Made by a program: the position numbers and the translations under genes
Source: Dictyostelium discoideum
Taxonomy: Eukaryota
Length of the DNA stretch: 64,000 nucleotides
Reading direction: 5' to 3'
NCBI GenBank assembly: GCA_000004695.1
Contig: CM000153.2
Location: forward strand, 768,001 to 832,000
Shown: piece by piece, positions 15,637 to 59,489 of the stretch
Position numbering within the stretch: the first letter of the stretch is position 1
Layout of the letters: the number at the start of each line of letters is the position of its first letter
The notes under the pieces: model-generated
The model's input: only the letters and a program-made list of their open reading frames with translations
What the model was told of the DNA's origin: nothing
The model's database searches: none

Positions 15637-15689
<53 letters not shown>

Positions 15690-16202
15690 GTATTTATTAA
15701 CTTTCTAACCATACATTCATATATAGCATCATGTAAATATGTTTTTAATAGGGACTTTATTGAAATTAATTTGTCAAATTTCGGTACTAGTTGCATATTT
15801 AGATATTACTCAACCAAAATACGAAGAAAACAGTCATACAAAACAATTAATTAGAGTTTTAGTTGAAGGTTTTATGAAATTTGTAAAAAGTTTAACAATC
15901 CAATATAGATCGATTCAATTTCATGATACACATATAATTGCACCACAAAAAGTAAATATATTTATTAAACGACAATAATTAAAATTAATATGTAATACTA
16001 ATACCATAAATAATCATTAATACTATAGTTAAAAAAGTATCCAATGGTAGAAGATATTAAAACATTATCAGATTCTTATATTCATTCAAATGTATTTGCA
16101 TCCCTATCGGCGATAAAAGAAATTAAACATATTTTATATTGTTTTTATAATTTTTTAAGAATTAATAAAGATAACTGGAAAGAAGTCCATGATTCTCTAT
16201 AA
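15267..16202 (+). CDS. Hypothetical protein with a His-tract. Proposed exons: 15267..15614 (or ..15689), 15727..15951, 16029..16202.
   Basis: Exon 1 is a long ORF from ATG 15267 ('MKKDKKETSSNSKKVDRVAFDEEEIRQEIVSILD...'). A second coding segment in another frame ('...LIGTLLKLICQISVLVAYLDITQPKYEENSHTKQLIRVLVEGFMKF...APQK') ends at a GTAAAT donor at 15952. It joins in phase to a third exon after 'tactatag' at 16028 ('LKKYPMVEDIKTLSDSYIHSNVFASLSAIKEIKHILYCFYNFLRINKDNWKEVHDSL*'). The junction between exon 1 and exon 2 is ambiguous. Either a 112-nt intron from 15615 that contains (CAT)16, or a 37-nt intron from 15690 that leaves (CAT)16 coding as poly-His. Confidence 0.45.
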
Positions 16203-16775: not shown

Positions 16776-17262
16776 ATTCACACAAATACACAAATACAAA
16801 TATTCGCACTGTTTACCACATTCACACGCTCACACACCCTTCCCTCATATAAAAATAAAGTACAATGTAAAACCGACACATTCTTTCATAAAAAAAGATT
16901 ATTACTAAAAAAAAAAAAATAAGATATATAAATTTGATTTTCTTTTTTTTTTTATTTTTTTAAATCTAAATGAATCATGGCGTTCAAAGAGAGTTGCCTT
17001 AGAATTCATACCCTCTATTATTCAAATTATTTTAAAATAACTTGTGTGGAGAGATTACACAATACCCTAAAAAAGAATTAATTTAGTTGTAATTAAATTT
17101 TTAAATAATTAAAATTAAAATATATTTTTAGACATTATTATTAATTATTTTATTATTATTTTTTATTTTTAAAATAAAAAAAAAAAAAAAAAAAAAAAAA
17201 CTATAAATATAATCAATAATTGTTATTAATTTCAAACAATTATTTATATATTTATAAAAAAA

Positions 17263-18854
17263 ATGATTATCAATAAACTTTGTATCATTTTTATTTTTTT
17301 AACAGCTTTAATATTCCAGGCGCATTCTTTAAGTGGTAATTATTATTATTATTTTTATTATTATTATTATTATTATTATTTTTATTTATATTATTATTTT
17401 TATTAACATATATTTTTTATTTTTTATATAGATATAGATTGTGAAGCTTTAGATGAAAATTCATGTAAGGGTAATAATGAATGTCTTTATTTACCATTTG
17501 TTGGATGTTGCGGCGAGAGTAAATTCTATTGCGTAAAGAATCAAGGAAACTGTTTTGACAATCGTTTATCTTGTGGTAGAAATATAAATACTGGTAAAAT
17601 TTTCGAATTTTGGTCAGTATGTAAACCACAAAAGGATTTCAAAGATTTTTCACCATCCAATCAAACATGTGACTCTTTAAAATGTGAAGAAAAAGGTTTC
17701 ACTTGTAAATGGATTGAACCAAATTGTTACGGTACATCATGTTGTACTCGTGAACCAAAATGTTTTGATCAAGATGATAACATAGTAGATCCACAAAAAC
17801 AACAAAAACAACAACAATGTGCATGTCAACCAAATAATGGTAATGGTAATAATGGTAACAATGGTAACAATGGTAACAATGGTAACAATGGTAATAATGG
17901 TAACAATGGTAACAATGGTAACAATGGTAACAATGGTAACAATGGTAATAATGGTAATAATGGTAATAATGGTAACAATGGTAATAATGGTAACAATGGT
18001 AATAATGGTAACAATGGTAATAATGGTAACAATGGTAATAATGGTAGCAATGGTAATAATGGTAACAATGGTAACAATAATAACCAATGTAAGTGTTTTT
18101 ATTAAATTATAATATTTTAAAATTAGAAAATTATAATTAATAATTATTAAATTTTTTTTTTTTAAAAAGTTGATTGTGAAAATGTTGAAAATCAAGATCA
18201 ATGTCAATCAAATTATCCAAAATGTAAATGGTTATCATATCCAGGATGTTGTGGTGACCAAATTTCAAGATGTGTAAATGATCCAAATAATAATTGCTAT
18301 GATAATCAACTCTCATGTGCAACTCATGTTGAAACCAATAAAATATATGAAATCTGGAGTACTTGTAAACCACAAAAAGGATTCAAGCAATATTTCCCAT
18401 CAAATGGTAAGTAAAAGAATTTCATTATTCTTTAAATACCCAAATTAAAATTAATTTTTTTTTTTCTTCTAATAGTTACATCTTGTTCACAACTTGATTG
18501 TGAAAGTAAAGGTATGGATTGTGCATGGTCAACAGATAATAAATGTTTGAGCACCCATTGCTGTCAAAATACACCAAAGTGTGTTCCAAAGAATGATAAT
18601 AATGGAAACGGAAATAATGTTAATAATAATAATAATAATAATGGAAATAATAATAATAACAATAACGGTAATGGTAACAATAATAATGGTAATAATAACA
18701 ATAATGGTAATGGTAATAACAATGGTAATAATGGTAATAATGGAAATAATAATAATAATAATAATAACCATGGTGGTAATGGAAATAATGGTAACGGTAA
18801 GTTTTTCTAAAAATTTATTAAAAAAGGGGTAGTGTATATCTTTTATTAATAGTT

Positions 18855-18885
<31 letters not shown>

Positions 18886-21800
18886 TATCTATTTTAATAG
18901 TTGATTGTGAAAATGTTACAAATCAAGATCAATGTCAATCAAATTATCCAAAATGTAAATGGTTAACATATCCAGGATGTTGTGGTGACCAAATTTCAAG
19001 ATGTGTAAATGATCCAAATAATAATTGCTATGATAATCAACTCTCATGTGCAACTCATGTTGAAACCAATAAAATATATGAAATCTGGAGTACTTGTAAA
19101 CCACAAAAAGGATTCAAACAATATTTCCCACCAAACAGTAAGTAATAAATTATATTAACCCTTTTAAATAATTTTGTTAATGATTTTATAAATAATATTT
19201 AATTTTTTATTATAGTGACTTCATGTTCTCAACTTGATTGTGAAAGTAAAGGTATGGATTGCAAATTATCCCAAGATGATGGTTGTTTAAATACTCATTG
19301 TTGTCAAAAAACATTGAGATGTGTGCCAAAGAATAACGGTAATGGTAACAATGGTAATAATGGTAATGGTAACAATGGTAATAACGGTAATACTGGTAAT
19401 AATGGTAATAACGGTAGCAATGGTAATAATGGTCAATCAACTGGTGGAATGGTTACAACTAGTGGAATGGCTACAACTGGCGGAATGGCTACAAATGGTG
19501 GATCTTCAGTATCATCAAGTGGTAATAATGGTAATAATGGTAACAATGGTAATGGAAATAATGGTAATAACAACAATAACCAAAGTAAGTATTTAATTGT
19601 TGATAGTCAATAATTTAAATTAATTTAAATGTTTTAAAAATAATAATAATAAAAATAAAAAATCTATTTTAGTAGTTGATTGTGAAAATGTTACAAATCA
19701 AGATCATTGTCAATTAAATTATCCAAAATGTAAATGGTTAACATATCCAGGATGTTGTGGTGACCAAATTTCAAGATGTGTAAATGATCCAAATAATAAT
19801 TGTTATGATAATCAACTCTCATGTGCAACTCATGTTGAAACCAATAAAATATATGAAATCTGGAGTACTTGTAAACCACAAAAAGGATTCAAGCAATATT
19901 TCCCACCAAACAGTAAGTAAAAAAATTATATTAACCATCTTAAATAATATTGTTAATGATTTTATTAATAATATTTAATTTTATTATAGTTACATCATGT
20001 TCTCAACTTGATTGTGAAAGTAAAGGTATGGATTGCAAATTATCCCAAGATGATGGTTGTTTAAATACTCATTGTTGTCAAAAAACATTGAGATGTGTGC
20101 CAAAGAATAACGGTAATGGTAATAATGGCAATGGTAATACTGGTAATAATGGTAATACTGGTAATAATGGTAATACTGGTAATAATGGTAATACTGGTAA
20201 TACTGGTAATAATGGTAATACTGGTAATAATGGTAATACTGGTAATAACGGTAATACTGGTAATACTGGTAATACTGGTAATGGTAATAATGGTAATACA
20301 GGCAACAATGGTAATACTGGTAATGGTAATACCGGTAATACTGGCAACAATGGAAATGGAGGAAGCACAAGTTCGCCAGAACCAGCATTAGCAACAATTA
20401 CAATTGCAACAGGTGGCAATAACCATCAATCTACAGGTGGAACAGGTACAATAGGTGGATCTGCTTCAACATCAACATCATCAGGCGGTAATACCGGACA
20501 TAATGGTAATACTGGTAATAATGGTAATACAGGCAATAATGGAAACGGAGGCAGCACAAGTTCACCAGAACCAGCATTGGCAACAATTACAATTGCAACT
20601 GGCGGTAATAACCATCAATCTACAAGTGGAGCAGGTACAACTGGTGGATCTGCTTCAACATCAACCTCATCAGGCGGTAATAATGGTAATAATGGAAATG
20701 GAGGCAGCACAAGCTCACCAACCCCAGCATTAGCAACAATTACAATTGCAACTAGCGGTAATAACCATCAATCTACAGGTGGGGCTGGTACAACTGGTGG
20801 ATCTGCTTCTACATCAACAGCATCAAGTGGTAATGGTAATAATGGAAATGGAAACAATGGTAGCACCGGACATAATGGTACTAATGGAAACGGAGGCAGC
20901 ACAAGTTCACCTACCCCAGCATTAGCAACAATCACAATCGCAACTAGTGGTAATAACCATCAATCTACAGGTGGAACAGGTACAACTGGTGGATCTGCTT
21001 CAACATCAACATCAAGTGGTAATACCGGAAATGGAAACAATGGTAATAATGGTAATACTGGCAATAATGGTAATAATGGAAATGGAGGCAGCACAAGTTC
21101 ACCAGAACCAGCATTAGCAACAATTACAATTGCAACTAGTGGTAATAACCATCAATCTACAGGTGGAACAGGTACAACAGGTGGATCAGCTTCAACATCA
21201 ACATCAAATGGTAATAATGGAAATGGAAACAATGGTAATACCGGTAATAATGGTAATACCAGTAATAATGGTAATACCGGTAATAATGGAAATGGAGGTA
21301 GCACAAGTTCACCAGAGCCAGCATTAGCAACAATTACAATTGCAACTAGTGGTAATAACCATCAATCTACAGGTGGAACAGGTACAACTGGTGGATCTGC
21401 TTCAATATCCTCTTCATCTTCAGGTTCCTCATCTTCAGGTTCTTCAACTTCAGGTTCTTCATCTTCAGGTTCTTCAACTTCAGGTTCTTCAACTTCAGGT
21501 TCTTCAACTTCAGGTTCTTCAACTTCAGGTTCTTCCTCATCAAATAATGGTGGAAGTGGTACTGGAGATAATGAACCAAAATTTGCCTCAATTACAATTT
21601 TAACTAGTGGACATCATACTAGTGGGTCAAGTACAACTGGTGGATCAGCCACATCTTCAACAACCACATCTTCAACATCACATAGTAATACTGGATCAGT
21701 ACATGGAAATAAACGTAGTGCATATGGTGCAGGTTGGGGATCAGGTCCAAACTTTTCAGCAACCAATGTAGATAACGTTATGGAAATGCAAAATGGTGGA

Positions 21801-22130
21801 AATGAAGTAAATGAAAACAATGAATACTTTGAAGCACAAAATGGACAAACCAATGAAAACAATCAAAATTATAATCAAAACAATGAGAATTACAACACAA
21901 ACAGAGATTGGTTATCACAACAACAAGGTTATTGGTATACTAGATCCTCACCAGACGGTTCATTAGAAATTCATATTCCAGAAAACTATAATGACTATGA
22001 AAGACAAATATTTGACCAATCTGGTAGTATAGGTCGTTCTCGTGAGAATTCTTATGATGATACCCCTAAAAATCCATATAGTGGTCCATATGGTGATAAC
22101 TCTTCTCAATCTAAAGCAACCACAAATTAA
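17263..22130 (+). CDS. Secreted cysteine-rich modular glycoprotein (dictyostelid-specific extracellular family). Eight exons: 17263..17335, 17432..18088, 18170..18406, 18476..18796, 18901..19137, 19216..19584, 19676..19912, 19990..22130.
   Basis: Signal peptide 'MIINKLCIIFIFLTALIFQAHS'. Every intron is GTAAGT/GTAAT...TAG with matching phases (all phase 1). N-terminal domain 'CLYLPFVGCCGESKFYC...CKWIEPNCYGTSCCTREPKC'. Then alternating modules A ('VDCENVxNQDQCQSNYPKCKWLxYPGCCGDQISRCVNDPNNNCYDNQLSCATHVETNKIYEIWSTCKPQKGFKQYFP', 237 nt, 3 copies) and B ('TSCSQLDCESKGMDCxxxxDxCLxTHCCQxTxxCVPKN' plus GN-rich linker, 3 copies). Final exon carries about 7 tandem ~63-aa repeats 'GGSTSSPEPALATITIATSGNNHQSTGGTGTTGGSASTSTSS', a (SSGSSTSGSS)n block and an N/Q/Y-rich C-terminus. 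The A3 acceptor could be 19673 or 19676. Confidence 0.8.
20353..21420 (+). repeat. Tandem ~189-nt (63-aa) coding repeats, about 6-7 copies, followed at 21403..21545 by a 15-nt (SSGSS) serine repeat, inside the final exon
   Basis: Recurring 'ggaggcagcacaagttcaccagaaccagcattagcaacaattacaattgcaact...' at about 20359, 20548, 20701, 20893, 21084 and 21294. Confidence 0.85.
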
Positions 22131-23055: not shown

Positions 23056-23911
<856 letters not shown>

Positions 23912-24073
23912 AATAAAAATAAATAAACAAAAAAAAATTTATAAATCAATATATTTTTACAAAGTGTTTAATTACTTTTTTTATTTATTTATTTTATTAA
24001 GTAAATATTTTAAATCGATATATTGGCAGAGTATTATTTATTTATTTATTTGTTTGTTTGTTATTGTTATTTA

Positions 24074-24605
24074 TTATCTTTTCTCTTTTTTATGTGAAGA
24101 TCTACCTCTGTCTCTATCATCTCTTCTATCACCTCTATCACTACCACGATCTCTATCTCTGCTATCTCTGCTATCTCTACCACTACCACCTCCACTACTA
24201 CTACCACCACTACCACCTCCACTACCACTACCACTTCCACTACCAGTACCATAACGATCTTCATCATCTAAATTATCAATATAAGATCGTCTTTTCTTTG
24301 AAGATGATTGATCATTTGATGGTTTCTTTGGTGAAAGAACTAATTCACCCTCTTCATTGCCATCCTCTTCTTCATCTAGTGCATTTTGAACTAAAAATTC
24401 AATATAGTCTTTAAATATTCTTAAACGTTCTTGGTCATCACCTAAATCTATATACTCTTTCTTTGATTCAATAATTGGTTGAATATCTGACCATTGTGAT
24501 GATTTATTTATTACTTTAGTTTCTGTTAATAATATTTTAAATTGTGAAATTCTTTTCTTCTTTTTCTTTGCTAAATTCTTTTCTCTACTTTCTTCTTTAT
24601 ATTTT

Positions 24606-24645
<40 letters not shown>

Positions 24646-25787
24646 AATATAAACATATTATTATTATTTATTTATTAATAATTATTATAATATACATACA
24701 TATTCTAAATATGGTAAGAAATTAAATTCTTGAATTAAATTATAATTTGAATGTTTTGAAAATTCAGATTTTAAAGATTCTAAAGTTGTAGATTCAGGTG
24801 AATATTTAAAATTTGTTTCTTTTAATATCTCTTTTAATTTTTTATAATCATTTTCATATTTTATCTCTAATTCATCCTTAAAATCTGAAAATAATTCTAA
24901 AGGTGTTGAACCAATTGATTTTTGACTTAAATTAATAAATGATTGATGATTTTCATTATTTAATTTAAATATTTTCCATTTTGTTAATGCATGTAATTCA
25001 CCATTTTTAAATTTTTCATTTAATAATTCCTAAAATAAAAATAATGAAAAAAAAAAAAAAAAAAAAATATTATATTAATATTATTATAAAAAAAAAAAAA
25101 AAATAAAAAAATAAAAAAATATATTTTTACTCTAAAATTATCTCTATCTTTTCTTGAATCTTTTTTTAATTTTTCTTTTTCTAATCTTTTTTGATCATCT
25201 AATTTCTTTTCTAAATCACGTATGAAATTTTCAAATACTGTTAAGAAATCGAATTTATCAAGTACTTGAAAGACATCATCATTTTCGAATTGATCTCTAA
25301 CTTTACGCCATTGAGTGAAAACGGTTATCGAAGGATCCAATTCTAATTTTTGACGTAAAATTTTCATTTGTTCTTTTTTAATTGACATTAATTGATTCTT
25401 TTCTTGTTGTTCCAATTCTTGAATATGGTCATGTAATAATGATTCACGTTCACGTTCACTCTCTATTGCTTCCCAACGTGGTTCCGATTCGAAATAGAGT
25501 GATGCTCTTCTCCATGACATTAGTGGTGTTACCTCTTTACTGTCACGTAATAGTTGAATGAAATCCTCTTTGGCTTTCTTTTCTTTCTTTCTCTTTTCTT
25601 CTTGTTCAACTTTTTTTCTATCAACTTGGTAATCTAAAAATACTTGTTTTCGTTCACTCATTGTCTTTAAAACTTGATATCTCTCATCATTTGCAATTGA
25701 TTTAAGTGCTTTCTCAAATGTACATATTGAACTAATTGAATTATCTGTTAATAAATTTTTAAATGTTTGAATTGGATCTTCTTTATT

Positions 25788-25825
<38 letters not shown>

Positions 25826-26312
25826 GCTGCTGCTGCTGTTGTGTATCTAAATTATTTGTATTTATATTAGAATCTTTAGATTCTTTTAAATCTTTATTAT
25901 TATTATTATTATTACTATTATTATTGCTATTTACTTGTTGTGGTTGTTGTGGTGTTGCTGAGGTTGTAATTGGTTGTATTGGAGTTGTAATTGTTGTTGA
26001 ACCACTAGATGATAGTTGTGGTGATGATGTTGATGTTGATGTTGTTGTTGAAGCTAATTTTTGTTGAAATTCAGGTGGTGCATCCCATTGTCTTACACCT
26101 GAGATTGTATTATAATAATATTTTTGACCTTTATCTGTTTTATATTCTTTCCAATCACCAATGATAACTGGTTGATTATTTGAATTTGAATCATTAGATG
26201 ATGGTGCTGGTGATTTTAAATCTTCTGGTATTTCCCAAACACTGACTCTTGTAACTTTATGATAATAAAACTTTTTACCATCTGCAATCGCTTCTACCCA
26301 ATCACTTGACAT
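24074..26312 (-). CDS. PRP40-like pre-mRNA processing factor (two WW domains plus FF domains, RS/RD-rich tail). Three exons: 26312..25131, 25029..24700, 24607..24074.
   Basis: WW domains 'DWVEAIADGKKFYYHKVTRVSVWEIP' and 'DWKEYKTDKGQKYYYNTISGVRQWDAP'. FF-domain-like helical segments. C-terminal 'GSGSGSGGGSGGSSSGGGSGRDSRDSRDRDRGSDRGDRRDDRDRGRSSHKKEKR*'. Introns GTAAAA..TAG (101 nt) and GTATGT..AAG (92 nt), all phase 0. Confidence 0.75.
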
Positions 26313-32135: not shown

Positions 32136-32795
32136 ATGGGTAATACATCATCATCAAATTATGATTGTAATCAACAATCTAAAAATAATAAAAAAAATAA
32201 TAAAATTTCAAAAAAGAATAAAAATTGTTCAAATACAATAAATAATAATAATAGCATTTCAAATTGTAAAAAAGAAGAACCAAAGAAAAATTATAAATTA
32301 ATTACATTAGGATCATCAGGTGTTGGTAAAACATCGATTAGTTTTAGATTCGTTTCAAATATATTTGTAACTGAATATGATCCAACAGTTGAGGATGCCT
32401 ATAAAAAAGATTATGTTTTCGATGGTAAAGAATTAAAATTGGAACTTATAGATACTGCTGGTCAAGAAGAGTATAGTAGTGGTCTTCATGATAAAGCAAT
32501 TCGTAGCTGTGATGGTTTTATCCTTGTTTTCAGTATTACAAGTCGTGAAAGCTTCCAAAAGATTAAAGATTTAAGAGAAAAAATCCTTTGGGTTAAAGAT
32601 AAAGATAGAGTACCAATGGTTATCGTTGGTAATAAATCTGATATGGAAAAAGATAGAAGAGTTTCAAAAAGTGAAGCTCGTTCATTAGCTGAAGAATTTG
32701 AATGTAGATACATTGAAACTTCTGCAAAAACTTCTGAAAATATAGAATTATTATTTAATACAATTCTTGGTCAAGTTGTTGAAAAAAAGAAATAA
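32136..32795 (+). CDS. Ras-family small GTPase, N-terminal 'MG' (myristoylation-type start), no CAAX box
   Basis: G1 'GSSGVGKTS', switch I 'YDPTVEDAY', G3 'DTAGQEEY', G4 'GNKSD', G5 'ETSAK'. Single exon. Lys/Asn-rich N-terminal extension. Confidence 0.85.
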   Translation: MGNTSSSNYDCNQQSKNNKKNNKISKKNKNCSNTINNNNSISNCKKEEPKKNYKLITLGSSGVGKTSISFRFVSNIFVTEYDPTVEDAYKKDYVFDGKELKLELIDTAGQEEYSSGLHDKAIRSCDGFILVFSITSRESFQKIKDLREKILWVKDKDRVPMVIVGNKSDMEKDRRVSKSEARSLAEEFECRYIETSAKTSENIELLFNTILGQVVEKKK

Positions 32796-37454: not shown

Positions 37455-39623
37455 TTAATTTTTAGTAGTTATGAATGAATTCTCTATACCATTATTTATT
37501 GAAAAAGGATTACCTGAAATTGAAGTATCATTTTTAATATTATTTTTTGCAACCATAGTACATAAGATATCAATTATATCTGGTGGATTTTTGATTATGA
37601 ATGGATTTGAAAAATTATTTAATTGATTATTTGGGTGTGGAGGTGAAGGAGAAAAATATTGAAAATTTTTATCATTGTTTGAATACTTTAATACAAAAGC
37701 TGAACCTTTTTTTAATTGATTAATTATTTCGATTGGAATTTTATCAAGTCTACATTTTATATTACCAGTTAATTCTTTTTTAGATTTATTAAAAATTAAA
37801 TCATCAATGTAAAATAATGATGATAAAGATTTCTTTATAATTGAATGTACAGTTGGATCATTTTCAATGTTTACTTTTTGTTTTAAAATATTCATTGTAT
37901 TATCATCCATTTCATCCAAACCAATTGATTTCTGGAAACTTGGATTGTACCTAAATGAATTTTTACCTTCCCATATGAAACCATAATAAATTTCATGAAC
38001 TTCTCTCCAAGAATTTATAGATTGTGTTAAAAGATTATATTCCTGATCACCAACTTTAAAAATGTTATTTTTTTGATTTTCTGGTGATGGGAAATCACCA
38101 GTACCAAGTGAAACTAACGTGTCTAAGTTTCTACAAGGCCACATATCTTTATACTCTTTCATTGCAACTTTACAAGGATTATTATTCTTTAAACCACCAT
38201 CAAGAAATTGACGACTATTATATTCAAATGTTCTGAAATATTTAGGTGCAGCTGATGTGGCTTCAGCTGCGTCAGTTACTTTTGAACCAGATATAAAATG
38301 TGTTTGTTTTGAACATTTTGATGGGTATGTTTTTTTTTGATAATTTGAAAATATACACTCATCAAAATCACCAGACTCTTGTGTTACAGTTACAACTGCA
38401 GCCCTTATTTTTGGAAATGAAATTGATAAAAATTTGTCATTTAAAATGGTTTTATAACATTCTTTTAGTTTTTTTCTTTTATATTTGGGTTTTCCAAATA
38501 TATGGGTAATAATACCCAATGTAGGTCTTTCATAACCTTTTTTTGCCAAAATGTCAAATGATATAGCTAATTCTGGTAGTGTTTTCTCAGTTGATGCAAG
38601 TTGTAAAGCAACTAATCCACCTGCAGATGTACCAACAATTAAATCAAACAATTTTGAAATATGAATACCATATAGTTGCTTTTGTATTTCTTGTAAAACA
38701 TTGCAATGTAATATACCTCTAACTCCTCCACCATCCAATGATAGAACTCTTGCACCCATTGTTTTAATAAAATCTATTTCCTTTAATATATATTCTCTAT
38801 CCCCATAACATCCTGGAACTCTACATTCATCTTTAGGTCGATCAGGCATTTGAGAAAATATACCAAGTGAGCAATCTAAACATAGAAAATGTCCACATTT
38901 ATATTCTATATATGGAGAATTTAAACAACAACCAAAACAAACACCTTGATTTGTTGTTGCATGGCCAATGAAAACTTGTTTAATTGTTTCTTTACCAGAG
39001 AGGTGATTACTTAATAATAATGATAAATCATCATATTTTACTGATTCATCAAATTCTCCATCCCATGTATATCTTACTTCTGATTGGTTAAAAAAAGAGC
39101 CAAATATTTCAGTGTGCTTGGGTTTATATGTTTCACTTGATATATGCTTTGTATGAGTACCCCTAAAATTTGTACATGAATAGCCATGTACATTTTTTGA
39201 ACCACACGGTACCATCCCATGTATTTCACCTGATACTAGTTCTAATATGCTTTCAAAACGTGGATGCAATTTTTTAGAATACTCTGGACCTATGTGGTAA
39301 ATTTTTTTAAAATTTGTGTAAATCTCTGGCAATCTAAATTTTAATATATTCAAACAATGGGTGTAACTTTTTGATTCTTTTGAATTACATTTAAATGTTT
39401 CAACAAAATAATAATAATTTATTAAAAAGAATTCAAATAAGTAGTTGGCATGTAAATTTATCATTTGATCTGTCAAAGAATGTTCTTGATTTTTTGAATA
39501 AATTGGCAAAGTTGATTCTTCACTTCCAGATTTATGATTTTGATGTAAATTATCTAAGTCTGGATTAGTTTGAAAAAGACCATCTACTATTGGTCTTTCT
39601 TCTAGTTGTGTTTTATCAATATA

Positions 39624-39722
<99 letters not shown>

Positions 39723-40025
39723 ATTATTATTATTATTATTAGTATTATTAATATTATTATTATTATTATTATGATTTTTATTATTATTATTAGATGAAGT
39801 AGTTGTAGTTGTTGTTTTATTACTGATATTTGCCTCTCTATCCTTTAATATATCTGGTTCAAAATAAGATTCTTCTGAATTTATTGAAAATGTTATTGGT
39901 GTTCCTAAAAGATTTTGAATGGATTTAATTGATGAATCAGAAAATGTGTAATGTGACATATTCCCAATTTTATTTGAAGAAGAAGAAGAACTTGGCAAAT
40001 CTTCATCTGCATTAAAATTAATATA

Positions 40026-40096
<71 letters not shown>

Positions 40097-41490
40097 CATT
40101 ACTATTATTTGAAGTGAAATTTCTAAAAATTTTATTTGTTGATTTTGGTTCTTGAAAATTTGAAAAATCATCAATAATTCCAGTACAATTTAATTTAACT
40201 AAATCGGGTGAACCTATTGGATTTTTACTAAAGAAATTAGTTAAATTTGAAATTCTTTTCATACATTTTGATTTTTCAACAGAAATTTTTGGAGTTCTAT
40301 TATTTTTAAATTTTAAAGATTCTAAAACCTTTTCACTAATAGTTTCTTCCAATTTTTTAAATTGACTTTGATATCTATTAAAAGAATCTAATTCCTTTCC
40401 ATTAATATTTGGTAAGAAAATGATTGAAACTGATTGAAAACGTGTTTCTATCTCTTTTGAACCATGAAAATAATCCTTAAAATATTCTTTCTTGGCATAT
40501 TTCATATCATCATATTCTTTATTTTTATTAGAATTATTAAATAAAATGATTAAATGTGGACTACATGGATTATTTGCACTATCAGCTGCAACCGAAGAAA
40601 ATTCAAGTAAACTATCAATAACATCACCTCTATTTCTGGCATCACCATAAAATGTTAAAACAAAAACATCTGAACATAAATATAATAATCTTGGATAAGA
40701 TGATTGGACATATTTACTTCTAATATCAGCCTTCTAAATAATTAAATAAATAAAATAAAAAATAATAAAAAGAATTAGGAAAAAATCCATTATGAAATTA
40801 AAAATTTTTAATTTTTTAAAATCAAAATACAAACTATTAATAATGATTCATTTTTCTCATCTTTTTCTTTTTTTTCATTTCTTTCTTTTAAATCATTGGT
40901 TTTTTGAGAAAATGTTCCATTGATTCCTTCAGAATCAATAATTACATATTTAAACTTTTCTTCACCAACAGTTTCACCAATAAATGAATTTAAATCTGAA
41001 GAGGTTGATGTAATTGAATCACCACCAGGAATTGGATGATCGCAAGTTTTTGTCAAGTTACAAATTGTGGTTGATTTACCTGAGCCACTAGAACCAATAA
41101 AACTATCGACTAAAAATGGATCTTTATCTGATAATCCAATTTGACCCCATTTGTATCCATGATCAATTGTCTTTGTTTTAGTATTAACAAACAAAAGTTT
41201 ATTTTTTAAATCCATTGATCTATCATATTTTACAATATCATTGTAGCCTTGTGTGAATTTTTGATATTTAAGAAAAAAAGTAACCCTTTTAAATTCTTCA
41301 TAAGGAATTGTTTGGTGTTCTGATTCATCCTGATGTCTAGTTGCACATGATTTACAAATAATTCTATCTCCATTACATTGAAGACAAAAATGAAAATCAT
41401 CACTATTTGTTGATTCTTTTTGACATTTTTTAAAGTCACAAATTATTTTGGTAGGGTATTTATAAATTTCATCTTTTACAAATACCTTTT

Positions 41491-42009: not shown

Positions 42010-45967
<3,958 letters not shown>

Positions 45968-47956: not shown

Positions 47957-50544
47957 TCATCTACTGCATCTAAACCAATTGACTTTTTGGAAACTTGGAT
48001 TGTGTCTAAATGAATTTCTACCTTCTTTAATTATATCATAAATTTCATGAACTTCTCTCCTAGAATTTTCACATTCTGTTAAAAGATTAATAATCTTTTC
48101 ACCAAATCTAAATAAATTATTTAAATCTGCTTCTGGTGATGGGAAATTACCAGTACCAAGTGAAGCCAAAATATCAATATTTCTACCAGGCCACATATCT
48201 TTACACTCTTTCATTGCAACTTTACATGGATTATTATTGATTAAACCGCCATCTTGAAATTGACGATAATTAAATTCAAATTTTGAGAAAAAAGTTGGTG
48301 CAGCTGATGTTGCCTCTGCAGCGTCAATTACATTTGAATTGGTAATGAATTTCCTTTGTTCTGAACATCTTGTTGGGTTAGTCTTTTTTTGGTAATTTAA
48401 AAATAAACATTCCTCTAAATTACCAGATTCTTGAGTTACTGATGTAACTGCTACTCTAATTTTTGAGAATGAATTTTTTAATTTTTCATCAGGTGGGAAT
48501 ATAGTTTTGAAGGATTCTCTTAGTTTATCTCTACTATATTTTGGTTTTGATACTAGGTTAGCTAATAATTGGAATGGATGTTTTACAAATACACTTTTTG
48601 ATAAACTTTCCATTGCTGTACTTAATTGTGCAGGAGTCTTTTGTGTTGATGCTAATGCCAATGCAACCAATCCTCCTGCTGATGTACCAACGATTAAATC
48701 GAATAAAGAAATGATTGGAATGTCAAATAGTTGTTTTTGAATTTGTTCCAATGCATCACAATGTAAAATACCTCTTACACCACCACCATCTAATGATAAT
48801 ATTCTTACACCCATTGTTTGTATTTTATCGATTTCTTTGATCTTACAAGAAAGTTTTCCATTACATCCCCTTACTCTACAACCTTCGTCCGATGTATTTT
48901 GGGTTTGGTCAATAAATCTACCAAGTGAACAATTTAAACATAATAAATGACCACATGTATATGGTATATATGGCGAATTCAAACAACAACCAAAACAAAC
49001 ACCTTGATTTGTTGTTGAACCTTGTATATTGTATGGTAGAATTCTAGGTATACTAGTAAGACGATTACTTAAAAATACCGATAAATCAAAGTATTCTAAT
49101 GATGGCACAAATTCACCATCCCACATATACCTTACGAATGTGTCGGTTTTAAAAAATCCTAACAAACCACCATTTGATAATTTATAAGTTTCATTTGATT
49201 GATGGTTTCTATGAGTTTCTCTATAATTCGTACAAGAATGACCTTTTGCATTCTTTGAACTACATGGTACCATCTTAAATATTTCTTTTGAAACTAAATC
49301 TAAAGTCTTTTTAAAAGATGGATGCAATTTTTTTGAAAACTCTGAATTAATATTATTTGTTTCCTTAAAAATTGAATAAACGTTTGGCAACTTTATTTTC
49401 AAAATTTCTAAACTATCAGAATAACATTTTGATAATGATGATGATGGTTTATTCTCTACTAAATAATTATAATTTATTAAAAAAAATTCTAATAAATACT
49501 GTGCATATTTACAAAGATGTAAATCACTTAAATTATTATCAAGTTTTATGACAGATGTGTTTAATGGTGATGATTGTGATCTTTTTAATGGTGATTGTGA
49601 TGGAGTTGTTGATGAACTATTTGATAATTTTGATGGTTGTGGTGATGGTGGTTGTAATGGTGATGGCGATGGTGGCAATTCTAATGATTGATATGATTGT
49701 GATGGAGATGGTGATGGTGTTGATAGTGTTGATGATGATGGAGTTGTTGATGAACTATTTGGTAATGTTTTTAATTCACTAATTTGTCTTTGCTGTGATG
49801 GTGGTGGCGATTGTAATGATTGATATGATGGTGATGGTGTTAATTCAATAACTTGTCCTTTTTGTAAATTTTCATTATTATATTTATTATAATGGTCTTG
49901 TGGAACAGTATCATCAATCTCTGGACGTAAAAATGATTGAATTTGAAAAAGCTCATCTGCTATTGGTCTTTCTTCAAGTTGTGATTTATCAATGTAACTA
50001 TTATAATCTTTATCATTATTATTAATAATTTTATCATTACTATTATTAATATTACTATTAATATTATTATTATTATAATAATTATTATCATTACAATTAT
50101 TTTTATTATTAATAATATTATTATTATTATTAATAATAATATTATTATTATTATTATTTTTATTATTATTATAATTATAATTATAATTATTATTTTTATT
50201 ATTATTATTATTATAATTATTATTATTATAATTATTATTATTTAAATTATTGTCCGAATTATTTTTTGAATTTGTAAATTTATCTCTATTGATAGGAGAC
50301 AATCCGGTTTGTGGTTGTCTGTTATTTTCATTTAATGGTTTCAAATTTCCCACTGAATATGTTCTGACCCTATCTCTAACTAAATTTGATTCTAATTCAA
50401 CGGGTTTTGAAGTATGCAAAGGTGGTGGTGAATTAAAAATAGTATGAAGACTTTTAATTGATGATGACGGAATTGGTGTTGAGAGATGTGATTTATTAAC
50501 AACTCTAGAGTTATTACTATTATTGTTATTATTATTATTACTAA

Positions 50545-50607
<63 letters not shown>

Positions 50608-50608
50608 G

Positions 50609-50643
<35 letters not shown>

Positions 50644-50721
50644 AAGAGATGGGCATTGATGGGATTGTTTTATTATTATTATTACTTTTATTATTATTAT
50701 TATTACTTTTATTATTACTAC

Positions 50722-50803
<82 letters not shown>

Positions 50804-51510
50804 ATTATTATTATTATTATTAGAGAAGGACGTTGATGGAACAGTTTTATTATAAATTGGTTTTAATTTATGTGTACTTGGTAATGGTTTTTGTAGTTGA
50901 GCTTGATAATCATTAAGTGAAATTTCATCAAATTTTCTTACTATACCAGTACAATTTAATTTAATTAAATCAGGGGAACCATCTGGATTAGAACTAAAGA
51001 AACTAGCTAAACTTGAAATTTTTTGCATTGATCTTGATTTTTCAACCGAAATTTTTGGACTTCTGCTTTCTTTGTATTTTAAAGATTCCAATACTTTTTC
51101 ACTAATCGTTTCTTCCAATTTTTTAAATTGTCTTTGATATCTATGGAAGGTATTATTTGATTTTTCATTAAAATTAGGTAAGAAAATTATTGATACTGAT
51201 TGAAAACGTAATTGTAAGTCGATTAAATGTGAATGTTGATCTTTGAAATATTCATTCTTTGCGAATGCCATATCATCATATTGTTCTTTTTTAGAGGAAT
51301 TATTAAATAAGATGATTAAATGTGGACTGCATGGATTATTGGTACTATCGGCTGCAACCTGAGAATATTGGACTAATCTATCATAAACATCAGCTCTATT
51401 TCCTGCATTGCTATCAAATGTAAACACAAATACATCTGAACACAAATATAATAATCTTGGATATGAATATTGAATAAATGGAGTTCTTATTTGAGCTTCC
51501 TAATTTTTGT

Positions 51511-56797: not shown

Positions 56798-58280
56798 TTA
56801 ATATGGAGTTATTCCATTTGGTAAACAAACTGGAATTCCAGTTGTATCAGCAACACATTTAGTTCCTGGTGAACATTTTACAAATTCACATAATGGGGCA
56901 CAACGTGATTGTTCTAATAAACAAATTTCATTTAATTTACAAGTGATAATTGGGCCACATGGAATTGATAATCCATCACCCTCATTTTCATTATCATCAT
57001 ATCCATTAGGATCATTATCATAATCATCATTAGAATTTGATGGTAAACGACACGATGGAATTTGAATACAGCAGTCACGAGAACCTCTTGGACATTTATT
57101 AGGAACCATTGCGCAATCCAATGAACCACAATTAACATCATGACAAGTTTTACAATGACCTGGATGGGTTTCTCTTACGCATGATGGGAGATCATTGATG
57201 ATTTCGCAAGAGTATCCAGATGGGCAATGTAAATCTCTACATGGGTAGTTTGGTGGTAATGGATTACGAATACATGTTGGAAGATTATTAATTGCCTTGC
57301 AAACATAGCCATATGGACAAGTTACATTACGACATAATGAGCCTGGATTTGGTCTTTGGCAATGTGGACGATGGTGAGAGTCGACCACGCAATCATATCC
57401 TGGTGGACAATGGTGATGCTCGCATTCCTTTTCTTCACATTCTACACAATTGGCGGTTCCACCAAATTCGACACAATTGAATCCTTTTGGACATTGAACG
57501 GCATCACAAAGCACTGGTGGAGGTGGTGGTGGCTTTGGTTTTGGTACACAGCATGCTTTACCATCTTTTACAATACATTCTTTTCCTCTACCACATTTAA
57601 TAGCTTTACAGAGATGATGTGGTTTTGGTGGTGGTGGTCTTGGCTTTTCAACACAGTAAGCTCCACCATGAATATCTTGACAACAATAATCCTCTGGACA
57701 AATTACATTCTTACATGGTGAGACTGGTCCACCACCGCCACCACCACCCTTACAAACTGGATAACGTGGACAACATGATGTACCCATACATGGTACTGGG
57801 TCAACCCATTCACAAACTCCTCCACTTGCTTCACATAGCTTTTGATCACAAGTTTCATTTCTAACTTGATAATCATATAAAAATGGTGAATTTGGTCTAC
57901 ATGAACTCCAAATCTCATAAATTGCATCGGTTTTTGAATCTTTCATACAACTTAATGGAGCATTTCCACAACCATTTCCATTATCTTCTACACAAAAGAA
58001 TTTCTTTGTACCACAACATGAAACAAAAGGTAAATACTTACAACCAGAATTTGGTGCTTTACATTGGTCCTCTGACAAACTATCACAATCTTTTTTTAGA
58101 AATAAAAAAAAAAAAAAAAAAAAGATTAGTTCCTATAATTATAAATTAAAAATAAAAATAAAATTTAAACTTACTTCTAGGAGGAGGTTTCCACCATTTA
58201 TCATGTTCCGGATTTGCATTACTAATTGATAATGTTGAGAAAACTAAAACCAAACATACTAATAAATTATTTATCCTCAT
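56798..58280 (-). CDS. Secreted cysteine-rich repeat protein, paralogous N-domain to the 17263..22130 gene, followed by multiple 'C-P-x-G-(Y/F)-x-C-(V/I)' EGF/follistatin-like repeats. Two exons: 58280..58175 and 58089..56798.
   Basis: Signal peptide 'MRINNLLVCLVLVFSTLSISNA'. GTAAGT donor and '..aaaaag' acceptor, phase 1. 'CKYLPFVSCCGTKKFFC...IYEIWSSCRP...TCDQKLCEASGGVCEWVDPVPCMGTSCCPRYPVC' aligns with the N-domain of the 17263 gene. Repeats include 'CPPGYDCVV', 'CPYGYVCKA', 'CPSGYSCEI', 'CPKGFNCVE', 'CSPGTKCVA'. Gly and Pro hinge runs. Confidence 0.75.
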
Positions 58281-59489
58281 TTTTTTTATTTTTTTATTTT
58301 ATTATTTATTTAATTTAGTTGATTAAAAAAAAAAATGTTTGAGTTCCTTTATATACTTATTTATTTTTTAATTTTTTTTTTTTTTTTAAAAAAAAAAACA
58401 ATTAAAATTAAATAAAATAAATATAAAAATTAAATATATACATATTTTTTTTTATTTATACAAAATATTAAGAATTATTACCATTATTAATATAAAACAA
58501 ATAAGATATAAGATTTCGAGCAAAATGCTATGCAAATAATCACCCACTCTCTTAAAATTTTCGTTGGCGCCATTTCACACTAACCCAAAACACTGGTATT
58601 CCAATGGGATTTTTATTAATTTTTTTAAAAAAAAAGTATATGGGTACTATGGAAGATGGGTATAAATCGATTTTATTAAAAAAAAAAAAAAAAATTATAA
58701 AGTAATTAATTCACACTAACTATTTATATTATTTATATAATTTTTAAAACTTTTAGTTTTTCATCAAATTACAAAAATGTGATATATTTAAGATAAATAC
58801 AAATTACAAATAGTCTAAAAAAGGGTAGTGGGAACTTTTTAATTATTTATTTTTTTTTATTTTTATTTTTTTAATTTTATTTAATTTTTAAATTAACTGA
58901 AAAGCCAGTGTTCCCACTCCTAATTCCAACAATTTATAATTTCAATTTATTTATATATTATTATTATTTTATTATTTTTTTTTTTATTTTCTTTTATTTT
59001 TTTATAAATTATTATAATTTTTCATCACATTTTTTTTTTACCAAACATCCTTTATTCCAAACAAACTCCAATAATTAAAAAATATGAGTTTCATTTGGAA
59101 ATAAAGGTAATTTAATAAAAAAAAATAAAAAATAAAAAATAAAAAATAAATTAAGGGATAGTTTTTTTTTTTATTTATTTGTTATCAATTTTTTTTTTTT
59201 GTTTTTTTTTTTCAAAATGTTCATTATTTAATATTGGTTTTTAGGAAATAGTTTTGAAAAAAAAAAAATAAATATTTTATATATTTAGTTTTTGTAATAA
59301 CATATAAAAAATACATTCCCTTCTTGAGAAAATAAAATTTTATTTTTATATTCCTACACAAAAATCTCAAACAATTCTCAAAAAAAAAGTAGGATACCAA
59401 TCAGATATTTATTAATTTTTTATTTTTTATTTTTTTTTGAAAAAATTTTATAACTGAAAAAAAAAAAAAAAAAAAAAATTTTATAACTG

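Follow-up and report, generated by a model that had tools for sequence, protein, structure and literature searches.

The region analysed here, referred to below as the window, is a stretch of 64,000 nucleotides (nt) from Dictyostelium discoideum AX4 (contig CM000153.2, positions 768,001 to 832,000) with a G+C content of about 20%. On its plus strand, at 17263-22130, lies a single gene of 8 exons, for which the gene model built on the window sequence gives a product of 1423 amino acids (aa). The exons are located at 17263-17335, 17432-18088, 18170-18406, 18476-18796, 18901-19137, 19216-19584, 19676-19912 and 19990-22130. All 7 introns are of the GT..AG type, 69-104 nt in length and 3-16% in G+C content, and interrupt the reading frame in phase 1 (7/7), with seven GTAAGT or GTAATT donors matched with (T/A)AG acceptors. 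Because the closed open reading frame (ORF) of 1423 aa is obtained only when all 8 exons are joined, the whole region belongs to one spliced gene. In the Kyte-Doolittle plot, the sole peak above 1.6 covers residues 1-8 (signal peptide), and a search of the 1423-aa protein for a hydrophobic C-terminus found none, and hence no glycosylphosphatidylinositol (GPI) or transmembrane signal. With the hydrophobic segment restricted to the N-terminus and a hydrophilic C-terminus, the product is predicted to be soluble and secreted, in agreement with an initial annotation of the DNA letters (the sequence-only reading), in which a Cys-rich secreted protein encoded by one spliced gene of 8 exons had been proposed.

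Exon 1 (17263-17335) carries the start codon and the signal peptide (MIINKLCIIFIFLTALIFQAHS) and is followed by intron 1 (17336-17431, phase 1); this organization, a 73-nt first exon plus a phase-1 intron, is also kept in D. purpureum. Exon 2 (17432-18088) encodes an unsplit Dicty_spore_N domain, designated domain 0 (17434-17778), a Q-rich stretch and a (GNN)26 linker (17842-18078), for which Tandem Repeats Finder (TRF) detected 26.3 copies of a 9-nt period, and intron 2 occupies 18089-18169. Three cassettes composed of modules A and B then follow on the same strand. Cassette 1 (type I, 18170-18900) consists of A1 (18170-18406), an intron (18407-18475), B1 (18476-18796), of which the Cys part ends at 18596 and is followed by an N/G linker, and a second intron (18797-18900). 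Cassette 2 (type II, 18901-19675) consists of A2 (18901-19137), an intron (19138-19215), B2 (19216-19584) and an intron (19585-19675). Cassette 3 (type II, 19676-20110) consists of A3 (19676-19912), an intron (19913-19989) and the Cys part of B3 (19990-20110), which is the beginning of the last exon. The repeats at 18170-18900, 18901-19675 and 19676-20450 had been recognized beforehand as tandem cassettes and are real, but no boundary exists at 20450; likewise, the description of A and B as single phase-1 exons holds for A1-A3, B1 and B2 but not for B3, the 5' end of a much larger exon. Downstream of B3, the last exon encodes a (GNT/GNN)n linker (20111-20357; TRF periods of 9 and 27 nt, and translation), the mucin-like region (20358-21653) and an acidic, aromatic and non-repetitive C-terminal tail ending with the stop codon (21654-22130).

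The mucin-like region was delineated by repeat search, TRF and protein analysis. It contains 6 full copies of a Thr/Ser/Gly repeat at 20358-21404 and a single degenerate copy at 21573-21653, and between them a (GSS[ST]S)8 tract at 21411-21535 (8.3 units of 15 nt), corresponding to the (SSGSS)n tract noted earlier. About 7 repeats of 63 aa had been counted at first; the number is close, but the units range from 51 to 70 aa because the GN spacers vary, and what is common to them is a 37-aa core, GGSTSSP(E/T)PALATITIAT(G/S)GNNHQST.G.GT.GGSAS. Ser and Thr together make up 39% of residues 800-1260, a composition from which O-glycosylation of this region may be expected. The number of full repeats differs between close relatives, 4 in D. 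cf. discoideum and 6 in AX4.

The Pfam search identified four Dicty_spore_N domains (PF04562, DSCP-N) in the protein with an E-value of 9.8e-128 and a score of 419.9 bits against a cut-off of 22.3, each of the four stretches spanning profile positions 1-114/115; domain 0 alone gave an E-value of 5.8e-32. A family profile constructed in this study also found four domains, with E-values from 1e-52 to 1e-65. Modules A and B each encode one half of a Dicty_spore_N domain of about 120 aa and are separated by a phase-1 intron that sits in the middle codon of an N-x-T sequon, and the sequon is conserved at each A|B junction. Over 24 domains of 17 proteins, including this one, the Cys framework consists of 12 invariant and 1 near-invariant residues, and the conserved Cys are all found in all four domains of the protein. 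Domain 0 begins at residue 26, directly after the signal peptide; the other three copies are internal, which is atypical for the family. The overall architecture is, in order, a signal peptide, domain 0, the GNN linker, three further DSCP-N domains, the Thr/Ser repeats, the GSSxS tract and the acidic tail.

When 1.84 billion cluster representatives were searched with the profile, only 21 proteins were found, none with more than two domains. A homology search with the whole protein was dominated by low-complexity GNN/TS matches and gave only spurious bacterial hits, and a search with the trimmed query gave a single match, the D. purpureum orthologue. The AlphaFold2 model of domain 0, made with 24 family sequences, reached a mean predicted local distance difference test score (pLDDT) of 92.3, and a Foldseek comparison of this model with solved structures detected nothing at E <1; a profile search of PDB sequences for relatives of the domain gave no match. 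The Pfam scan at E up to 1 gave, in addition to Dicty_spore_N, only a compositional Collagen match (PF01391, 54.8 bits), which is above the threshold. A collagen triple helix was nevertheless rejected, because the match stems from (GNN)26, the translation of a 9-nt microsatellite, Pro is absent, the other linkers break the periodicity, and the linker of D. purpureum consists of His, Asn and Lys without Gly-X-Y.

The closest relative found is DICPUDRAFT_99881 of D. purpureum (569 aa), in which domain 0 is followed by just one A|B unit; the A exon measures 240 nt and has phase-1 introns on both sides. Domain 0 of the D. discoideum protein has its orthologue in domain 1 of DICPUDRAFT_99881, with 56% aa identity, and gene order is conserved between the window and the D. 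purpureum locus (L001) on both sides, including the upstream gene and, downstream, the Yip1 gene, the WW/FF gene and the next gene. The synteny around Yip1 does not extend to Tieghemostelium and Heterostelium, in which it was tested. As a side observation, the D. purpureum annotation includes an extra phase-2 intron within domain 0 (L001 7654-7712, CYG|TSCC), without counterpart in D. discoideum. The protein P0015 of Cavenderia fasciculata (624 aa) has two domains, a mucin region and an acidic tail, and a phase-1 intron interrupts its second domain at the same N-x-T codon; the occurrence of an intron at the same codon and in the same phase in this species indicates that the A|B intron is old. 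The C-terminal tail is 95% identical to that of D. cf. discoideum, and no similarity was detectable when the C-terminal tail and half were compared with the D. purpureum orthologue and an SP70-like paralogue.

Two more orthologous loci were obtained through the neighbouring Yip1 protein, one from a chromosome-level assembly of D. discoideum (L002) and the other from D. cf. discoideum (L003). The latter contains four cassettes in a 10-exon model with nine introns, all in phase 1, and the length of this model, 1532 aa, is exactly that of the annotated product. D. purpureum thus has 1 cassette, whereas D. discoideum has 3 and D. cf. discoideum 4. The independent annotations of the two loci, with products of 1424 aa (L002) and 1532 aa (L003), agree with the exon logic described here. 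The acceptor before A3 is a tandem TAGTAG of the NAGNAG type (19671-19676), present in AX4 and not in D. cf. discoideum; use of its first AG would give 1424 aa, accounting for the one-residue gap between our 1423-aa model and the L002 annotation. An exact look-up of the 1423-, 1424- and 1532-aa models in the protein collection gave no match.

Near-identical tandem units of 775 nt are prone to mis-sizing by short-read or Sanger assembly, and the array might in principle be a collapsed or expanded assembly artefact, one of the outcomes that had been named in advance as refuting the observation. This explanation is extremely improbable: diagnostic sites distinguish the copies, whose linkers and introns are also distinct; the gene in L002 matches that of the window at all 4868 nt (100% identity), whereas the flanks, compared over 20.9 kb, show 6 mismatches and 20 indels; and the sibling lineage D. 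cf. discoideum has the same organization with one more unit.

The repeat search detected a 290-nt unit in three copies (starting at 18138, 18869 and 19644) and a 229-nt unit in three copies (18465, 19205 and 19979), with a spacing of 731-775 nt. The three A exons, 237 nt each, are 97.0% (A1/A2), 96.2% (A1/A3) and 98.3% (A2/A3) identical, and matches of 96-98% over 237 nt are beyond chance. The Cys parts of B2 and B3 (121 nt) are also 98.3% identical. An identity of about 98% including the introns had been claimed for cassettes 2 and 3; this value is correct for A2/A3 and B2/B3, but the A|B introns of the two cassettes are 93% identical (90% with gaps counted, at three gap positions), and the introns upstream of A2 and A3 only 67%. 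Cassette 1 shows about 64% identity to cassettes 2 and 3 in its intron and 76-78% in its B exon (60-78% when the two are quoted jointly). Between cassettes 1 and 2, synonymous divergence (dS) is 0.05 in A and 1.34 in B, with 7 differences in 237 nt against 29 in 121 nt (Fisher p 1.6e-9). When cassette 1 is compared with cassette 1 of D. cf. discoideum, B1 is 96.7% and the internal intron 88% identical. By its alignments, cassette 1 is a mosaic, in which a type II-like A exon is joined to an older, different intron and B exon.

Comparison of type II cassettes within and between genomes indicated that they group by species. Copies of exon A from the same genome are 98.3-98.7% identical, those from different genomes 95.4-96.6%, and the A-intron-B core includes 8 species-fixed sites that differ between the two species and 0 sites that group the copies by position. 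The within-genome dS (0.02-0.08) is lower than the between-species dS of 0.12 for domain 0 and 0.16-0.28 for the cassettes, although only 2 versus 6-7 synonymous differences underlie these contrasts. The introns upstream of the A exons, on the other hand, fall into positional classes common to AX4 and D. cf. discoideum: the class 2 intron begins with GTAAGTTTTTCTAAAAAT and the class 3 intron with GTAAGTATTTAATTGTTG, the two classes being 67% identical, and the class 3 intron occurs twice in D. cf. discoideum. Since the class 3 intron is common to both species, at least two type II cassettes must be older than the species split; given that they predate the split and yet are alike within each genome, gene conversion is required in addition to duplication. 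As judged from these alignments, the conversion tracts end in the upstream intron.

Species clustering alone cannot tell duplication from conversion, and the same grouping, with its 8 species-fixed sites, would be expected if each lineage had independently produced recent tandem duplicates of one type II cassette after the split, with no gene conversion. We consider this scheme improbable, because it leaves unexplained both the class 3 intron shared by the two species, only 67% identical to class 2, and the structure of the type I cassette, in which an A exon 97% identical to A2 is accompanied by an intron and a B exon of its own (64-78%), for which duplication alone is insufficient. The earlier suggestion of recent unequal crossing-over or concerted evolution is thus borne out by the cassette numbers (1, 3 and 4) and by the 8 species-fixed against 0 positional sites.

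The ratio of nonsynonymous to synonymous divergence (dN/dS) between the two species is about 0.04-0.06 for each cassette, indicating that coding constraint acts on all of them. This bears on whether the cassettes are alternative or skippable exons, so that mature proteins would have fewer domains than are encoded. All these exons are symmetric (phase 1-1), so the frame would survive any skip, and the TAGTAG tandem acceptor precedes A3. Exon skipping on this scale is nonetheless doubtful, with little probability in our estimate, since all splice sites are of the strong consensus type GTAAGT...TAG, purifying selection acts on each cassette and all cassettes are included in two independent annotations. 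Alternative splicing is, moreover, rare in Dictyostelium, which also counts against it.

These comparisons show the following history. The ancestor was a two-domain gene, and the phase-1 intron between A and B was present in its second domain from that stage on. Duplication of the cassette in the D. discoideum lineage gave rise to the old type I and to type II, of which D. cf. discoideum now has 3 copies and AX4 has 2 after further amplification. Since the lineages parted, the copies have been homogenized within each genome by gene conversion, with tracts that cover exon A in all cassettes and the entire A-intron-B core in type II, stopping in the AT-rich upstream introns. The copy number would change when the GNN-coding microsatellite linkers on either side of each cassette undergo unequal crossing-over, every crossover within a linker adding or removing exactly one in-frame unit of intron-A-intron-B-linker; as all introns are in phase 1, gain or loss of a cassette leaves the reading frame intact. 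The exon ends before the upstream introns are alike and of the GNN...NNQ type (...AATAATAACCAAT|GTAAGT and ...AACAATAACCAAA|GTAAGT).

With respect to function, a candidate element of the G-box/GBF type was found upstream of the gene. This CA-rich box (CACACGCTCACACACCC, 16823-16839, plus strand) lies some 430 nt before the ATG and is the sole non-microsatellite match to CACACN3CACAC in the window; CACACCC is enriched, with 5 occurrences against 1.0 expected. A CA/C-rich box is present at a similar distance in D. cf. discoideum (-438) and in D. purpureum (about -455). The G-rich motifs of prespore genes are described as binding sites of GbfA (PMC6598861), and the Dicty_spore_N proteins are counted among the relatives of spore-coat proteins (PMC11574339). 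Family membership, secretion, the mucin-like region and the CA-rich box together suggest an extracellular matrix protein made after aggregation and sent, most probably, to the spore coat or interspore matrix, where the tandem DSCP-N modules would bind multivalently. The assignment as a matrix, spore-coat or adhesion component, made in the sequence-only reading, is supported at the family level by the four Pfam domains.

Taken together, the locus probably encodes a secreted, disulfide-rich, mucin-like glycoprotein of the DSCP-N family, of which the cassettes have been amplified and converted, and which has a role in the spore coat or interspore matrix; as a whole, this is the explanation that we favour with good, though not full, confidence. 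Several points weigh against it, in addition to the small number of synonymous differences mentioned above. The lineages compared are three, with L002 probably representing the same laboratory lineage as AX4. The probable crossover points within the GNN-coding linkers were placed from where the homology ends. The CA-rich box is a candidate GBF-type element by a consensus-type match, which by itself does not establish that GBF binds there. FOLN/EGF-like Cys repeats, a feature common to characterized coat proteins, were not detected by Pfam at E up to 1, and family members may serve stalk or cyst walls instead (PMC11574339).

The last two points lead to the possibility that this family member serves another extracellular structure, such as the slug sheath, the stalk tube, the cup or sorus matrix, or a macrocyst or cyst-type wall. 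Besides the missing FOLN/EGF repeats, such a role would fit the fact that the life-cycle proteome paper does not name this gene among its coat proteins, and the lineage-specific nature of its C-terminal half. We regard it as possible but clearly the less probable assignment, given that the domain is defined by coat proteins, that a second Dicty_spore_N gene lies 35 kb away, and that the upstream CA-rich box resembles those of post-aggregative and prespore genes. A more speculative proposal, which we hold to be rather unlikely, is that DSCP-N is an unrecognized disulfide-rich binding fold, in view of the high-confidence model without a relative among solved structures, and that the numbers of cassettes and Thr/Ser repeats form a fast-evolving, possibly polymorphic quantitative trait that tunes the valency and spacing of a spore-coat or sorus protein binding matrix or cellulose. 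If so, the locus would provide a natural allelic series for module number versus coat assembly or spore survival.

The second Dicty_spore_N gene is located on the minus strand at 56798-58280 (Pfam E 7.7e-30). It consists of a signal-peptide exon, one intron and a 426-aa ORF, the N-terminus being identical to that of the 465-aa family representative P0022, and G/T-rich boxes lie upstream at about 58540-58930. Its identification as cotC was rejected: two published cotC primer pairs have no match in the window, and cotC is DDB_G0277141. Among the other genes of the window, a WW and FF domain gene on the minus strand (24100-26312) fits prp40 (DDB_G0283543) by description, implying the DDB_G02835xx region, and is two genes distant from the cassette gene, which has yipf5 as its direct neighbour; DDB_G0283539 was rejected as the identifier of the cassette gene, being calreticulin. 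In D. purpureum, a CAP-domain gene (L001 11724-12736) lies between the Yip1 and WW/FF orthologues, and none is present at the corresponding position of the window (23911-24281). The upstream gene (15267 onward) includes a (CAT)n run coding for about 18 histidines (15637-15690), after which comes a probable intron, and its D. purpureum orthologue encodes a 108-aa product. Three large tandem genes for patatin-like phospholipases (37455-40505, 42010-45927 and 47957-51445, minus strand; Pfam E 1e-28 to 1e-32) and a single-exon ORF at 32136-32792, exactly the AX4 small GTPase XP_639004.1, were also found.

The protein resembles the known spore-coat proteins SP96 (cotA), SP70 (cotB), SP60 (cotC), SP87 (pspD) and SP75 (cotD) in having a signal peptide and, immediately after it, the same 12-13-Cys domain of about 115 aa, Ser/Thr-rich mucin-like repeats, an acidic C-terminal tail and a CA/G-rich box upstream. 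It differs from them in that four domains are arranged in tandem (five in D. cf. discoideum), against at most two in the family representatives, that FOLN/EGF-like Cys repeats are absent, and that the later domains are split by introns and organized into amplifiable cassettes. An unusual four-to-five-domain architecture is thereby added to the spore-coat protein family, and the locus allows one to ask what the uncharacterized DSCP-N domain binds and whether the number of modules matters. With DICPUDRAFT_99881 and P0015, the protein shares the order of signal peptide, domain, linker, domain with a phase-1 intron at N-x-T, Ser/Thr-rich region and acidic tail; these two relatives have one A|B unit each, no sequence similarity is detectable in the linkers and C-terminal halves, and P0015 is without an intron upstream of A.

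In animal extracellular proteins, amplification of class 1-1 modules is well known as Patthy's exon-shuffling rule, and the tandem repeats of mucins and silks evolve in concert. By analogy, the present gene may be compared with these systems, as a secreted, Cys-rich, phase-1-bounded module has been duplicated into tandem copies that vary in number between close relatives and are homogenized within each genome, and as low-complexity coding repeats flank the units. Unlike the animal case, the organism is an amoebozoan, the unit consists of two exons with an ancient internal intron, and the conversion tracts are limited to the exons and that internal intron. The phenomenon is therefore of a known kind, phase-1 module amplification plus concerted evolution, here well resolved, and represents no new class of mechanism. 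It provides a compact non-animal example of the growth of an extracellular protein through amplification of phase-1 exon cassettes, in which both the change in copy number (1, 3 and 4) and exon-limited gene conversion are visible among very close relatives.

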